NCBI GenBank assembly: GCA_965237675.1
Contig: OZ250150.1
Span: forward strand, 2,816,001-2,880,000
Length of the DNA stretch: 64,000 nt
Direction: 5' to 3'
Source of the DNA: Candidatus Latescibacterota bacterium
GTDB taxonomy: Bacteria > Latescibacterota > UBA2968 > GCA-2709665
Part shown: in pieces, positions 2,628 to 59,831 of the stretch
How positions within the stretch are numbered: position 1 is the stretch's first letter
How the letters are laid out: the number at the start of each line of letters is the position of its first letter
Made by a program: the position numbers and the translations under genes
The notes under the pieces: generated by a model
What the model saw: only the letters and a program-made list of their open reading frames with translations
Told to the model about the DNA's origin: nothing
Database searches by the model: none

Positions 2628-5288
<2,661 letters not shown>

Positions 5289-54236: not shown

Positions 54237-54820
54237 CCCCGCCTCCTCCCGTCTGATCCGCGTTTCCCGACGGAAGAATCGGGGAAAGCGTGCCGTGTAC
54301 ACTCGGAACATTAAGAACTCGCCGTCAATCCGTCAATAGCCCATTTCAACATCGCGGCTGAAGCGGCGCCGCCGAGTTCTGCGAAACAGGATACGCCCGT
54401 CCCGGGACGAATGAGACGGCATTCGGCACCAGCCGTAGTCCGGCTTCCCGACCGGGTTAAGGTGTTCCAAAACGCAAACCAACCGAATGAGCGAAGGTGA
54501 AAAGATCCGGATGCGGAAACGCGAAAGCCGACATCGCAAGATATCGGCTTTCGATTGCATGGATCGAGAAAAGCGGTATTATCTCCCAAAATACACAACA
54601 CTGATACTTCAAACGACCACACTTTAGACCCCAAAACGCCGATCTGTTCAGCAACATCAATACTCGCTTATTTTAGGGCCAACACCACATGTGTCCAAAA
54701 ACGCCTATTTAGGCCAAATTTCGAACCTGATGTCTAAAAATCCAACGGTTCTTGGACAGCATTGGGCTAACACGAAACCTTCATAGCCCCCCTTTCGGCG
54801 GGGACTCAAGATTTCGTCTA

Positions 54821-57800
54821 TCATGCCCAAAGCCAATCCAACTCGGAGAAAGCAAGCTTCCGGTCGAAGTTCTCGATGTTGTCTCGAACGTTGAGGATCA
54901 GGCAGCGCTGATCGCCACCATTCAAAGGTCCCCGTAAACCCCTGCCTATCATCTGGAAATATAGGTTTGGGCTGTAGACTGGCCGCGCCACGATGATGGC
55001 ACGAGTCTTGGGAGCGTCGAAACCCTCACGGAATACTCCGTAGTTGACAAGTGCCCTTACCTCGCGGTTACGAAACTCTTCAACCACACGGCGGCGGGTC
55101 GCTGCCGCTGTCGTTCCACTGACCGCACGTGACCGGATTCCCCTTCGGTTGAGGAGTGCTGCCAAAGTCTGCGCGTGCTCGACCGATGTCGCAAAGATTA
55201 GTGTTGGCCATTCCGGATCAATATGTGATTCATACGCTTCGATGATGCGTTTGGTTCGCTCGGCGCTCTGAGCGATGCGCTCCTCCACGCTCTGGGGAAG
55301 CCAAGGTAGTGCCAGCCATTCGTTTAGTTTCCGTTCCATTTCTTCCTTGTCCAGCGAGCCATCCAGGATCTCGTCGATCGGGAACGTCTCGCCCTCAATG
55401 GTCTCGTGATCGGCTTGGGCAAGCACACCCATGTTTTGCAACTCGCGGATGACTGCGTCCGGCTCGTCGCTAGCGAACGCTCCTGAGTCCAGTCGCCTGT
55501 TTCCATAGCGACGAACGAGTCTCTTGGTCTCCTCCTCGTTACGTCCGCGATAGGGCGTAGCGGTGAGGCCAAGCATAAACGGCTCTTCCGCTCTTTGAAA
55601 ACGCGTCAATCCGATATCCTGCAATACCGACGTGAAGGTCGGAGCTATGGACCGATGTGCCTCATCGAAAACAACCAAATTAAAGTTGGCCAAAAACCTG
55701 TAGTCTTCTGTTTGGGTCGAGAGTCTCGCTTTAATTGTCTGGATGGTCGCGACGATGACATGAAGTTCGCTCGTCGGCTGTGGCCTCTCTAACCCGCCCC
55801 ACATTCTGGAAGTACGTAGCCGAACCGCTTGCATGCCTATGCTTGACCAAACCTGCCGCCACGCTTCCACGGCTTGCTCGCACAGTTCGTCGCGGTCCGC
55901 GACCCAAAGGACCCCGCCACTAAAACCTTCATCACGCATGGCTTCGACGATTGCCTGCACGGCGACGCGGGTTTTTCCGGATCCCGTCGGCAGACTCATT
56001 ATTCCGCGTCGCTTGGATTCATCCCCGTGTTCGCTACGCAACATTTCCCGGACATTGTCGACAATGGTCCGCTGGTAGACATGAAGGTTCGGAAGCGAGA
56101 ACGGGCCTTCGATCTCCAGAAAGGGATCGCGCTTCCCGTCCCGCTCTCCGGCCCATTCGGCGGAGAATCCGAGGGACCGCACGAAGTCCACGGCCCGCTG
56201 CGAGCCAGCCCATTGTGACGGCGGATCGAAACGATCCAACCCCCACCTGTATTGCTTGAGCGCGTCGGTGTGCCAAGTAGCAATGGCAGCTTCGGCGATA
56301 TCAACACTCGTCAGTGCGACGCCGTCGCTCTCGAGTACACCCAGAAGGGAGTCGGGAAGACCTGCGCGCAACGTTTCTTCACCCACCGCAGCTAGAAGCC
56401 GTTCAGCGTCGGTCGTATACTGCCGAACTCTCTCACGTCTCTCCTCGATCTCCTGCGGCGTCTTGCGGTTCAGAATCTCGACGATTTTCTGAAGGCCTAT
56501 CCCAAGCTCCAGCTCGTCAACGACGAGCTGGAGCTTTCGTAACTCGTCATCACCAACGGTGTCGGCAAGAAAGATATCGGAGGCGTGTAGAACGCACTCG
56601 CGAGGTTGTCCAAGGACGAGTATTCGCTCGCATCGAATGAGATTGCACGTTCTCCGATGCGTTGGAAGACTTGGTCCCAGTCCCGGCCAAATGTCAGTCA
56701 AAGGGATAGGATCGCCTTCGCCATGAAATTCCGGTACTGGTTCGGCCAAATCAAAGGCGGCCTTGATCTTGTCAGCCTGCGGATGAGCTAGTAGGATGTG
56801 CAGGGCTTCCGGACTCTTCGGGTGCGGTCCAAGGGCGTATGCTAGCGGCACAATGCCGCTGGGGGTCCGGATTAGTCCATGCGTTCGAAGCATGTGTATT
56901 GTAAGCGACTCGTACTGCACACTTGGGTATGATCGTCGATTCGTTCCCGTATGTTGCATTGTCCAACGTTCGAAGGAAGCATCGAGACCCAACAGCGCGT
57001 CCGTGTAGAACGCGTTGCCCGTATCGGAAAGGGTCGCAAGAACGCTCAGCGGGCCGACACCCTCGGATGAAGTGAATTCCAGGTACCACCTATTTGGATT
57101 GTGTGGCAGATTGTCCTGTTGGGAATAACGCGTGCGGCAAGTATTGAGGAATGACCTGAACTGCGGTTCTAACGACAGTTCCCGGCCATCATGTGGGGCC
57201 TCTGTCAGACCAAGAACGCGTAACAGATGATCGTTCGCTTCATGGAATTCGGTGTTCACAGTGGTGTTTTCGTCCCGGCTCCCATCGTCCGGCACGATCT
57301 GACCCGGCAGCAATACAGAATGAGGAGGCTGCCAAGTTTCTGCCCGTGTACGCACTCGGAGTTCGGTGGGCCAAGTTTCTCTTCCATCCCAGTCCTTGTA
57401 CTCTCGAATAACATCGCTGGCCGCTCCCGGTGATAGCGTGCGCGCAGTGATCCAGAAGTCGCGATGAAGATCGTCTCCTAGTTCCTCACTGCTGTCGGTT
57501 TGAAGGATCCGCTGTGCGACCTGTCGAAACTTCCTTTCCGGGGAAGGCGGCCTGAGTCCCAATTTCTTAAGTGCGGTAAGCGTGTCACCGTCCACCACCA
57601 GTTCACGGTGGACGTATGACGCTTGGTCCGCAGTGCCGTCGCCATTCAGCGACTCATCAGGCAGGAAAAGATGATCGGGATCGGGCGATAGCCAATGGCC
57701 GCTTGCCGTCAGAACGATGTCGCCAAGTCCGTCGATTGACCTATGTTCGGTAGGTATTTCTGCGGCCGTCTGGATAGCGGCCATTGAAGCTCGAACGGCT

Positions 57801-59338
57801 TCATCCGCCCTATGGTCTCGCACGAGAGAACTTAACCATTCGGCGATCGTGGCCCTGGGCACGGTCGGGGAGCTTCCCGGTAAACGCGAGGGAAACAGCC
57901 GGTCGACGCTAGCGAGACGGTTGCGTGTGAGGGCTTCATGGTGCAGCCAATTCGATGGTCGCCCCGGATACGCTGACCAGCGCATAAATGGCGCCTTGTC
58001 CGAGGCGTCGGTCAATTCCCTAGGGGGATATAAGATTTCCCCCATGGTGCGCAACTTTCCTTTCTGATCGGGTACGATTTCTCGTTTGCGTAGATGGGCA
58101 AACAAACGGTTGCGAAGCAGAACACTCTGCTCCGAGTCACCAGACTCTTGTCTGCGAGGCAGTGCGTCCAAATGGCAAGCAGGGTCTAACTGAGTCGCGA
58201 GTCTTGGCAATTCGTCGGCTATCAGCCGTGCCGCCATTTCGATCAGTTCGTCGTTATACGGTCCAGGCAGCAGATTTTGACGATCTTCATTGGTTTTCCA
58301 TGGCGCATTCAGGATACCGGCAAGGAGGCTTGCGGTCTTGGTCGGGAAGAACGCCCAGAAATGTCCGGGGCGATCCAAGCGATCTAGCGGTGCCGCCCAC
58401 GAGATCGGCACGTTGCCGCTGCCTTCGTCCAAGCCCCAGTCGCTCCGTGCTTCGGAAGAAAGGGCATGGGTTGTTTTGAAAAGCCGCCAACGCGAAGTCC
58501 CTTCGCCGGTATCGAGATGAAACTCCCCCTGCCGATCCTGCAAGATGAAGCTCCGGGAAACTTCCCCATCCTCAAGGGTCAGATAACGGACATGATCGAC
58601 GAAAAGCAAAAATTCGGGCGGAAAGTCTCTGATCTGTTGGGCGAGGTCATCATGCGCACCGGGCTCTATCGGCAGGCGGACGATGTTCGTCGCCCAACTC
58701 ATCAGTTCCCGCATTTCCGCGTCGGTATCACTCTCATTGTAGGGATCGATCGGTTCGGGCAAACGCAGCACAGGGTATCCTTCGGCTTGCGCGACGTCCG
58801 CTATTCGTTTCGCCGAGCGCGTTTTGTTGAACAAGAACGAACCAGACCGGCTGTAGAACTCGGGAGCATCCGTTACTCTCAAGACCGATTTGAAGCCCTT
58901 CCCGAACCTTCCGATCGCGGGGGTGTTCCGTTTGCTCGACATGCGGTCGAACATTAGACCCACGATTCCGTCCTCGTCGATAGATTTTCCATCGTCGGCA
59001 CAGTAGAGGAAGCGTTTCGTCAGGCGGATCAGGATGCTCCTGGCTTTTGGCGCGTCGAGCAAGGCGTCCGCGCTGTTCTGAACGAGTTCGAACAATTGCC
59101 GATGGGCATATCCACCATGAGCGGTATCGTGTTCGAGGTTGGCATGCTCGGTTACTAGACGTGGCTGCGCGCGGTACGATTCGAGAGTTCTTTCCGCCTC
59201 CTCGACAATGAACTTAGCGATCTGCCCTGTGGGGCCGATCCAATTCGGTTTCTCGTCGAAAGCGGAAAAGCCCAGCTTGGCATTCTCGCGGAAAAACCTA
59301 CCGCGCTCGCCTTTCGAAAAGTCGTATTCTGTCTTCAT
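54821..59338 (-). CDS. BrnA-like N-terminal peptide + sacsin-type GHKL ATPase + SF2 (DEAH/ResIII-like) helicase, 1505 aa
   Basis: MKTEYDFSKGERGRFFR; ELVQNSADA, ADDG, IGRFGKGFKSV, FFPT..ILNAPW..DRQNL; LPTGSGKT, ELCEQA, FDEAHR, GLTATP, IFATSVEHA, EGFDAP, QMIGRGLR. Confidence 0.9.
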   Translation of the reverse strand: MKTEYDFSKGERGRFFRENAKLGFSAFDEKPNWIGPTGQIAKFIVEEAERTLESYRAQPRLVTEHANLEHDTAHGGYAHRQLFELVQNSADALLDAPKARSILIRLTKRFLYCADDGKSIDEDGIVGLMFDRMSSKRNTPAIGRFGKGFKSVLRVTDAPEFYSRSGSFLFNKTRSAKRIADVAQAEGYPVLRLPEPIDPYNESDTDAEMRELMSWATNIVRLPIEPGAHDDLAQQIRDFPPEFLLFVDHVRYLTLEDGEVSRSFILQDRQGEFHLDTGEGTSRWRLFKTTHALSSEARSDWGLDEGSGNVPISWAAPLDRLDRPGHFWAFFPTKTASLLAGILNAPWKTNEDRQNLLPGPYNDELIEMAARLIADELPRLATQLDPACHLDALPRRQESGDSEQSVLLRNRLFAHLRKREIVPDQKGKLRTMGEILYPPRELTDASDKAPFMRWSAYPGRPSNWLHHEALTRNRLASVDRLFPSRLPGSSPTVPRATIAEWLSSLVRDHRADEAVRASMAAIQTAAEIPTEHRSIDGLGDIVLTASGHWLSPDPDHLFLPDESLNGDGTADQASYVHRELVVDGDTLTALKKLGLRPPSPERKFRQVAQRILQTDSSEELGDDLHRDFWITARTLSPGAASDVIREYKDWDGRETWPTELRVRTRAETWQPPHSVLLPGQIVPDDGSRDENTTVNTEFHEANDHLLRVLGLTEAPHDGRELSLEPQFRSFLNTCRTRYSQQDNLPHNPNRWYLEFTSSEGVGPLSVLATLSDTGNAFYTDALLGLDASFERWTMQHTGTNRRSYPSVQYESLTIHMLRTHGLIRTPSGIVPLAYALGPHPKSPEALHILLAHPQADKIKAAFDLAEPVPEFHGEGDPIPLTDIWPGLGPSLPTHRRTCNLIRCERILVLGQPRECVLHASDIFLADTVGDDELRKLQLVVDELELGIGLQKIVEILNRKTPQEIEERRERVRQYTTDAERLLAAVGEETLRAGLPDSLLGVLESDGVALTSVDIAEAAIATWHTDALKQYRWGLDRFDPPSQWAGSQRAVDFVRSLGFSAEWAGERDGKRDPFLEIEGPFSLPNLHVYQRTIVDNVREMLRSEHGDESKRRGIMSLPTGSGKTRVAVQAIVEAMRDEGFSGGVLWVADRDELCEQAVEAWRQVWSSIGMQAVRLRTSRMWGGLERPQPTSELHVIVATIQTIKARLSTQTEDYRFLANFNLVVFDEAHRSIAPTFTSVLQDIGLTRFQRAEEPFMLGLTATPYRGRNEEETKRLVRRYGNRRLDSGAFASDEPDAVIRELQNMGVLAQADHETIEGETFPIDEILDGSLDKEEMERKLNEWLALPWLPQSVEERIAQSAERTKRIIEAYESHIDPEWPTLIFATSVEHAQTLAALLNRRGIRSRAVSGTTAAATRRRVVEEFRNREVRALVNYGVFREGFDAPKTRAIIVARPVYSPNLYFQMIGRGLRGPLNGGDQRCLILNVRDNIENFDRKLAFSELDWLWA

Positions 59339-59622
59339 TCGCCAGACTCGTATTGACGCCGTTCGTTAGGGGTGGCGACGCGCGCCGAGATGAGCCGCAC
59401 CAATGTCTCGCGGTCGCCGGACTCGGCATCAGTATGACACACCACCAGCAGCCGACCGTCCTGAGCGCAACCCATGGTTATCCAGCGCTCCTCGAACTCA
59501 CTGTGATCCTCGTCGGGAATCGACTTCGAGAGCGGATCCCGGAAGACCGTGGCTGCAAGTTCGAAGCTGACCTTGTGATTCCGTAGATTGCTCGCTGCCT
59601 TGGCTGGATCCCAATCGAACAT
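59335..59622 (-). CDS. brnT: BrnT-family ribonuclease toxin (DUF497)
   Basis: FDWDPAKAASNLRNHKVSFELAATVF.DP, DHS..EERWITMG, LLVVCHT, RLISAR.AT..ERRQYE; stop overlaps the next start (ATGA). Confidence 0.93.
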   Translation of the reverse strand: MFDWDPAKAASNLRNHKVSFELAATVFRDPLSKSIPDEDHSEFEERWITMGCAQDGRLLVVCHTDAESGDRETLVRLISARVATPNERRQYESGE

Positions 59623-59831
59623 GCCGTTCCATTCAACGCGGCGATCGGTCGGCGGATGGGCTTATGCTTGAGACAATGGACTTGGCTGCACGGAGTGAGA
59701 TCGCACGAGGACGGAAAAAGGAATCGCAGTGTCTATTCACAGTAGAGGACTTGCGCATGGCGTCCACTGCGGCACCGTCAGGAGCCAAGGACAATGCAGA
59801 GGACTAGAACGTACGCGCCGTTATAGCGGAG

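Follow-up and report, generated by a model that had tools for sequence, protein, structure and literature searches.

The window analysed here is a stretch of 64,000 nucleotides from the genome of a Candidatus Latescibacterota bacterium (contig OZ250150.1). It contains two overlapping genes: brnT, which encodes a toxin of the BrnT family, and the gene for a 1505-residue protein, referred to below as the giant, that combines a sacsin-type GHKL ATPase with a superfamily 2 (SF2) helicase. Homology searches indicate that the first ~25 residues of the giant are a real N-terminal peptide of a compact BrnA-type antitoxin. We tentatively propose that BrnT is held inactive on this N-terminal tether of a defence ATPase-helicase and is freed when the latter is activated or lost, a reading that we consider possible rather than probable.

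The giant begins MKTEYDFSKGERGRFFRENAKL. Its residues 4-22 are identical to residues of a free 66-residue antitoxin, P0128, which starts with MKEEYDFSKGERGRFFRENAKLNLPVYLDDEV and then continues into a ribbon-helix-helix (RHH; LPVYLDDEV...). P0128 was among the free proteins of 64-68 residues retrieved when residues 1-40 of the giant were searched among shorter proteins, and its relative P0132 carries PF12441. On a Euhalothece plasmid, a protein annotated as 'BrnA antitoxin family protein' begins MRDEYDFSKGKRG and is encoded directly 3' of a 'BrnT family toxin'. Among 1.84 billion representatives, a 30-column profile of the peptide, hereafter the tag, matched 1167 at E<=1e-3. The best 150 matches include 144 proteins of at most 135 residues, most of which match at their extreme N-terminus. 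Metagenome loci chosen by the tag alone (n=74) gave a similar picture, with a tagged open reading frame (ORF) of 60-75 residues in 60/74. BrnT ends at most 60 nt upstream of the tag in 51 of the 62 of these loci that have at least 300 nt of upstream sequence, and 42 of the 51 are full length. The resemblance of the giant's first ~22 residues to a BrnA-type antitoxin, pointed out in a first-pass annotation of this DNA, is thus borne out. The peptide M-[KR]-x-E-Y-D-F-S...R-G-[RK]-F, encoded directly after brnT, is present in the giant. The C-terminal RHH (CopG-like) of a BrnA-type antitoxin was not found there: Pfam gave no match of any kind in residues 1-70, even at E<=10, the tag itself being too short for Pfam models. 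We therefore do not file the giant as a BrnA but only as a bearer of its N-terminal peptide. Because the RHH is the DNA-binding part and type II antitoxins usually have two parts, the 25-residue peptide may, by elimination, be the toxin-binding part of the antitoxin.

The tag is as well conserved as the enzyme to which it is attached. Across 108 tagged homologues, mean column identity is 0.83 in the tag core (residues 1-16), 0.83 in the ATPase body and 0.60 in the linker, and conservation is 94% or higher at each of E4, Y5, D6, F7, S8, R12, G13 and F15. The tag is predicted to be disordered: in the AlphaFold 2 (AF2) model, residues 1-27 have predicted local distance difference test (pLDDT) values under 50, and order sets in from ~residue 31. 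The tag leads straight into the conserved W33...ELVQN region of the ATPase. As had been noted before, neither ATG nor GTG occurs between codon 2 and ELVQN; a TTG at codon 82, which falls within the conserved core, is the only other start-type codon. An internal start giving an untagged giant was rejected, since no ATG or GTG lies upstream of ELVQN. The tag profile found one match in the genome itself (E 1.7e-16, the next at 0.03), so that no second copy of the tag exists and, in line with the earlier observation that a separate antitoxin is lacking, none of this subtype is encoded elsewhere in the genome. Two more brnT loci are present on contig 1 of the same genome (1456-1988 and 1480-1966 in the respective loci), each with a separate antitoxin of another subtype; one of these antitoxins begins MRDHYEFSKMKGRKNPY and has an RHH, and the other is a CopG-like protein of 99 residues.

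Both brnT and the giant gene start with ATG, and the TGA stop codon of brnT shares four nucleotides with the giant's start as ATGA. The same 4-nt overlap is found in most loci with a tagged giant (BrnT end at 4004 and big-gene start at 4001 in locus positions). BrnT matches Pfam PF04365 at 89.2 bits (cut-off 34.5, E 2.2e-25, profile positions 1-77/77), and a search of the whole genome with PF04365 recovered it at 88.6 bits, over the cut-off. Its nearest solved chain, found with profile A2, is 7vd7, described as 'toxin' (E 2e-23), and its sequence includes RLISAR. Alignment of BrnT orthologues (n=16) gave 20 invariant columns, among them K8, R46 and E87. According to a review, D6, E7, K9, R41 and E78 of Brucella abortus BrnT are needed for RNase activity (PMC5086665). 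Mapped through a weak alignment to 3u97 (E 0.58), four of these five residues are kept, D6, K9, R41 and E78 corresponding to D5, K8, R46 and E87 here and E7 to P6. The brnT/giant junction is bridged by contigs from two runs of other studies, where no insertion or deletion is listed and neither a stop nor a frameshift appears. The coordinates, the overlap and the PF04365 match all agree with the intact brnT that the first-pass annotation had placed in ATGA overlap with a 1505-residue ORF, and its observation was correct in every detail checked.

The ATPase of the giant has the motifs ELVQNSADA (residue 84), DDG and GRFGKGFKS. It scores 55.4 bits with NCBIfam NF047352, a model of sacsin-type GHKL ATPases (cut-off 50), and is matched by eight PADLOC TmtA models, best PDLC03964 (E 2.4e-50, residues 38-506). 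The AF2 model of residues 1-520 has a pLDDT of 85.5, and Foldseek relates it to Hsp90/HtpG/TRAP1 (best E 7.5e-9, 288 matches at E<=1e-3). The TmtA match places the ATPase in the Tiamat/sacsin branch, the prototype of which is an anti-phage protein; the first reading had called it sacsin-like. At the C-terminus, ResIII (E 7.9e-27), DEAD (E 2.7e-16) and Helicase_C (E 3.1e-13) all score above their Pfam cut-offs. Both RecA-like lobes are present (ResIII/DEAD at 1084-1264, Helicase_C at 1372-1469), along with GSGKT at 1119, DEAH at 1225, TATP at 1259 and QMIGRGLR at 1462 (motifs I, II, III and VI). The helicase also matches the RadD-like model NF053632 (E 4.4e-34), yet well under its equivalog cut-off. 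NF047352, Pfam and the motifs agree on a sacsin-like GHKL ATPase and a complete SF2 helicase, as the first reading of the sequence had them. The region between the two is confidently folded in the AF2 model of residues 480-1090 (pLDDT 86.8, predicted template modelling score 0.66). It has no Pfam, NCBIfam or PADLOC stretch, and the model gave 0 Foldseek matches against the PDB at E<=1e-3 (best 0.77) and no usable match in the ESM Atlas, nulls that prove neither novelty nor the absence of a nuclease. The earlier remark that the giant has neither an RHH nor a recognisable nuclease holds to this extent: searches with Pfam, NCBIfam and PADLOC, and with Foldseek on the model of residues 480-1090, revealed no nuclease domain. 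The features are listed in Table 1.

Table 1. Positions of the module's features in the window.
Feature	Position	Strand	Basis
brnT, gene for a BrnT-family (RelE/BECR-fold) RNase toxin of 95 residues, intact (activity predicted)	59335..59622	-	ORF and PF04365
Overlap of brnT stop and large-gene start, ATGA	59335..59338	-	translational coupling
Giant ORF, 1505 residues	54821..59338	-	open reading frame
BrnA-derived N-terminal tag (residues 1-27), presumed BrnT-binding tether	59258..59338	-	antitoxin homology, disorder, conservation
Hsp90-like/sacsin-type GHKL ATPase and transducer-like region (residues 33-520); Bergerat motif I ELVQNSADA at 84-92	57779..59242	-	
Central region (residues 521-1083), confidently folded, no recognisable family	56090..57778	-	
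C-terminal SF2 helicase (residues 1084-1505 and stop codon)	54821..56089	-	Pfam and motifs
Two-gene islet, 5.27 kb, present or absent at one chromosomal site in the genus	54567..59831	.	same-genus comparison

The tag and brnT occur together. A protein-database search returned 1427 relatives of the giant at E<=1e-3, the best 120 of which are full-length at 59-81% identity, and the tag stands at the start of 108 of 121 close homologues (the copy in the window included). A genome survey limited to one genome per species confirmed 431 relatives, and the best 80 loci were analysed. Thirty of the 80 are tagged. Directly upstream of these, BrnT is full-length in 22, frameshifted or partial in six and missing in two, so that BrnT or its remnant accompanies 28/30 tagged genes; within 4 kb of the untagged full-length homologues, BrnT was found in 0/47. 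A full-length BrnT without the tag was not seen among the surveyed loci. The four other genomes of the same genus that have the module all (4/4) carry a full-length BrnT, judged by a match to positions 3-96 of a hidden Markov model (HMM) in one frame, and the tag. The combination is therefore neither a singleton nor an assembly artefact, and the tie between tag and BrnT that the first-pass annotation drew from one locus extends to its relatives. In one locus (L080) a single deletion took the C-terminus of BrnT, the tag and 760 residues. In another (L070, 3623-5257) BrnT runs in frame into the tag without an intervening stop codon, and the big ORF stops after ~419 residues; BrnT is likewise in frame with the tag in P0280. 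Such a fusion could be a single-chain form of toxin and tag, a decaying copy or an assembly error.

For the phylogeny, 73 sequences were analysed with FastTree after removal of the tag columns, leaving out eight loci with ORFs shorter than 1300 residues. Of the 29 tagged sequences, 27 fall in one clade and the other two adjoin an untagged one; the smallest split holding all tagged sequences includes five untagged ones and has a support of 0.37. From this placement, an older family without the tag acquired it, together with brnT, once or twice in a derived branch. In untagged homologues titled as Chloroflexota or Dehalococcoidia (L035, L041, L046, L047, L049, L054, L078, L082 and L083), the in-frame sequence upstream of locus position 4001 encodes a strongly Lys/Arg-rich N-terminal extension instead of the tag. 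The giant family seems prone to acquiring add-ons at its N-terminus. Members of the family occur at 46-78% identity (best tblastn segment) in metagenome-assembled genomes (MAGs) whose titles name many phyla, including Gemmatimonadota, Alpha- and Gammaproteobacteria, Acidimicrobiia, Chloroflexota, Acidobacteriota, Spirochaetia and others, and many of these MAGs bear sponge-associated candidate names. Such high identity across phyla in MAGs so named suggests that the family has spread extensively by horizontal transfer within one kind of community.

If the tag acts as a tether, BrnT would be made in step with the giant by translational coupling, and docking on the BrnA-derived peptide would hold it inactive. 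Activation of the giant, as its ATPase-helicase engages foreign nucleic acid, would withdraw the peptide; alternatively, the peptide would be withdrawn when an invader destroys or inhibits the giant. The freed BrnT would then cut RNA and arrest the cell, a form of abortive infection. In Hsp90-family proteins, an N-terminal strap is exchanged on ATP-driven closure. The tether occupies the N-terminus of an Hsp90-like ATPase, where a strap-like movement would drive release. The data show the anatomy of the locus, the homology of the tag, its co-occurrence with brnT and its conservation; sensing, binding, neutralisation, release and a role in defence are steps that we infer for this module. An anti-phage role would be backed indirectly by the TmtA homology and the islet polymorphism described below; a few homologues have defence neighbours, which, coming from a scan with no control set, are not taken as evidence for such a role.

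The proposal that the giant holds BrnT through its N-terminal peptide was examined by complex prediction. BrnT with residues 1-40 scored 0.32 in 3/3 runs and the best of three controls 0.00; the runs share at least 73% of contacts, with a partner pLDDT of at least 51. In calibration, 58 of the 80 solved complexes and 2 of the 110 mismatched pairs attained the mark of the tool; at scores of 0.60 or less, only 7 of the 80 did so, along with both of the passing mismatches. The prediction lends weak support to docking of BrnT on residues 1-40.

Several observations weigh against a BrnT released by the giant in defence. The complex score is weak, and the mapping of the B. abortus RNase residues leans on a weak alignment. 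The TmtA profile is covered only at positions 7-450 of 1538. DUF3684 was not detected in the giant (by Pfam, or by the TmtA profile past position 450), although remote homology is possible, and the PD-(D/E)xK (DUF3883) nuclease of Tiamat is absent, the C-terminus being an SF2 helicase. A stable 'antitoxin' of 1505 residues with no RHH is a departure from the model of a labile, autoregulating antitoxin. In the window the module is surrounded by housekeeping genes (HflX, bactofilin, TolC/RND efflux), and the 134 nearest neighbours of homologues, for which there was no control set, include no conserved partner and few defence or mobile-element matches. Close relatives frequently have a truncated big gene. 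Defence, neutralisation and release are, moreover, what we infer and not what the locus itself displays. Finally, BrnT is broken or undetectable in 8/30 tagged loci while the big gene reads through, and the 47 untagged homologues are without it; whatever the giant does, it can therefore do without BrnT. Because of these same loci, BrnT is best regarded, from its distribution, as a second, add-on output acquired in the derived clade by a giant that has an output of its own. For the same reason the first-pass suggestion that BrnT replaces a missing nuclease effector is not supported as worded.

Rather than carrying a signal, the BrnT/tag pair may make the giant gene costly to lose or silence. 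Deletion or shut-off of the operon, or degradation of the giant by the counter-defence of an invader, would leave the longer-lived toxin free to kill the cell, and the giant's own function would be independent of it. Type II toxin-antitoxin pairs are known to stabilise linked DNA. Comparison within the genus shows that the module is under loss pressure, as it forms an islet that is present in some genomes and absent from others: in three genomes without it (G014, G009 and G002) the flanks lie 62-142 bp apart, and G010 has it at the same site. In G008 the islet has suffered a 2.6-kb internal deletion that left BrnT and a tagged N-terminal fragment. Both G008 and G001 retain a full-length BrnT match (HMM positions 3-96, one frame) and a tagged ORF of ~440 residues, and the 90% cluster of the window's giant includes six shorter members of 263-609 residues. 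This persistence of toxin and tag where the big gene is truncated, like the working of the giant without BrnT in the 47 untagged homologues, would be expected of addiction. However, a truncated ORF necessarily retains its N-terminus, which makes the tag on it weak evidence. The same mutants expose a difficulty: since a downstream nonsense mutation or deletion still allows the tag to be made, as in G008 and G001, the fusion would guard only the first ~30 codons. A complete brnTA cassette alongside the giant would do as well and keep its autoregulation, and the constant placement of the tag on an Hsp90-like N-terminus, together with its conservation at the level of the catalytic core, suggests functional coupling. 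We consider addiction unlikely, if a serious contender, and retain release from the tether as our tentative preference.

It is also conceivable that the tag recruits BrnT to the helicase as an active RNase subunit, in a complex that would degrade invader RNA directly and without arrest of the host. BrnT would then stand in for the PD-(D/E)xK nuclease lost from Tiamat and restore a machine of helicase and nuclease. A helicase does take the place of the Tiamat nuclease in the giant family, and the Tiamat preprint discussed below describes helicase-nuclease partnerships and a neighbouring helicase with a RelE-like domain. The in-frame joining of BrnT and tag in L070 could be taken the same way, but the big ORF there is interrupted by a stop after ~419 residues, which may mark the fusion as a copy in decay. 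The same peptide is part of the neutralising antitoxin in free BrnTA pairs, most members of the giant family are without BrnT, and the helicase of the giant resembles the DNA-acting ResIII, RadD and type I R enzymes. Recruitment of this kind appears improbable. Still less credible is an evolutionary scar, in which the giant gene received the 5' end of a brnA by recombination, leaving tag and brnT functionless, or BrnT neutralised in some other way: BrnT is broken or partial in six and undetectable in two of 30 tagged loci, the tag in the window departs from the consensus Pro at position 25 that 95% of tagged homologues keep, and the genome has two other brnT loci with antitoxins of their own, but the tag core is conserved like the ATPase across 108 homologues at 59-81% identity, BrnT keeps its 20 invariant columns, the co-occurrence of tag and brnT is near perfect, and no other antitoxin of the tag type exists in the genome, the other two being of different subtypes.

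The first-pass annotation had put the module forward as a new defence system. That claim does not stand as worded, because the combination of ATPase and helicase has already been described as a Tiamat-like type. The Bacillus cereus Tiamat is presented as an antiphage ATPase/DNase in a 2026 preprint (bioRxiv 10.64898/2026.09.30.754977, October 2026). Like the giant, it is a single large protein of ~1500 residues with an N-terminal Hsp90-like, sacsin-branch GHL ATPase. The giant differs in having no detected DUF3684 or DUF3883 and a central region without a structural match, and it is not a canonical Tiamat because its C-terminus is an SF2 helicase and not a nuclease. It fits the preprint's bacterial Tiamat-like Type III-A, in which an SF2 helicase stands in place of the PD-(D/E)xK nuclease; this fit is judged by the description given there. 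The same source reports helicase-nuclease partnerships, with one neighbour helicase fused to a RelE-like domain (bioRxiv 10.64898/2026.09.30.754977). Its main text contains 0 mentions of BrnT and likewise none of a BrnA-derived tag, and BrnT is not mentioned in the available text of a second Tiamat preprint. Literature on BrnT with helicases or defence, on BrnT with GHKL proteins, and on BrnT/BrnA did not describe coupling to such a giant. The expectation that the system would be unlisted therefore held only in part: the N-terminal ATPase matches the TmtA models of PADLOC, but the coupling of BrnT and tag to a Tiamat-like giant appears to be undescribed so far.

Free BrnT/BrnA pairs are the closest parallel to the toxin side of the module. 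Their toxins belong to the same BrnT subfamily (E 1e-40 to 1e-50 with an HMM of Tiamat-linked BrnTs), and they share the toxin-first order, the overlapping stop and start and the peptide M-K-x-E-Y-D-F-S-x-G-x-R-G-R/K-F. In the giant, the RHH domain with which BrnA binds DNA and dimerises is swapped for ~1475 residues of ATPase-helicase. Since the RHH is absent, the usual logic of autoregulation and a labile antitoxin cannot apply. The BrnT-BrnA fusions described in the available text of a RelE/ParE census retain an RHH or helix-turn-helix (PMC11980606). A logic similar to that proposed here is known from PARIS, where the AriA ABC ATPase scaffold reportedly holds the Toprim nuclease AriB and frees this RNA-targeting toxin on infection (PMC11464382, bioRxiv 10.1101/2024.01.02.573835). 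The families are unrelated, however, and the multimeric scaffold of PARIS contrasts with a grafted antitoxin peptide from which release would occur here. PrrC, an anticodon nuclease, is reportedly kept silent on the type Ic restriction enzyme EcoprrI, a DNA-directed defence enzyme with an SF2 translocase, and freed when a phage attacks that enzyme, which fits the guard version of our reading (PMC1484252). PrrC differs in possessing an ABC-type NTPase sensor domain of its own and in not relying on a tether from an antitoxin. We rate the module as a variation on what is known, joining a Tiamat-like ATPase-helicase to a BrnTA module under the logic of a sequestered effector.

A second tagged architecture was found outside the window. 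P0240, of 529 residues, carries a BrnA-type tag (residues 1-28) followed by PDDEXK_4 (PF14281), and P0199 is a fragment of such a protein. It matches the PADLOC candidate PDC-S26 (E 2.6e-16), and its 90% cluster has five members, four of them 504-529 residues long and on separate contigs. As to its genomic context, a metagenome scan gave matches to the tag only, a viral scan gave nothing, and the plasmid matches were untagged homologues. One may go further and suppose that the 25-residue BrnA peptide is a portable toxin-docking tag grafted on unrelated defence-type proteins to make 'toxin-armed sensors', with release in the Tiamat-like case by an Hsp90-style strap. We think this generalisation rather unlikely as it stands, though the tagged PD-(D/E)xK protein hints at a general principle. 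If it were true, a type II toxin would have been reused as an effector of abortive infection. Should the tether work, it would offer an economical route from a toxin-antitoxin module to an immune effector, keeping only the 25-residue binding peptide, and the release of BrnT would provide a testable read-out for sensing and for GHKL coupling in Tiamat-like ATPase-helicases. The giant family is abundant across phyla in the MAGs with sponge-associated names and may be an important mobile module there.

Beyond the two genes the islet has few landmarks. Clustering of flanking ORFs for a third conserved gene gave BrnT only; a second apparent cluster consisted of antisense ORFs over the 3' end of the helicase and was discarded. 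There are no tRNA or Rfam elements around the islet, no direct repeats were found bounding it, and promoter and terminator scans did not rise above shuffled sequence. Contigs from a sponge metatranscriptome match 58393-58627 and 58960-59264, in the 5' part of the big gene, where carry-over of DNA is possible; they carry no information on strand, transcript ends or co-transcription, and the parts of the gene that they do not cover are uninformative. Between the stop codon of the giant and the left edge of the islet lie two units (54590-54679 and 54693-54765) of a dispersed repeat of ~80 nt. Six other partial copies occur in the genome at 76-78% identity and many more in genomes of the same genus, and the repeat could be similar to repetitive extragenic palindromic (REP) sequences or miniature inverted-repeat transposable elements (MITEs).

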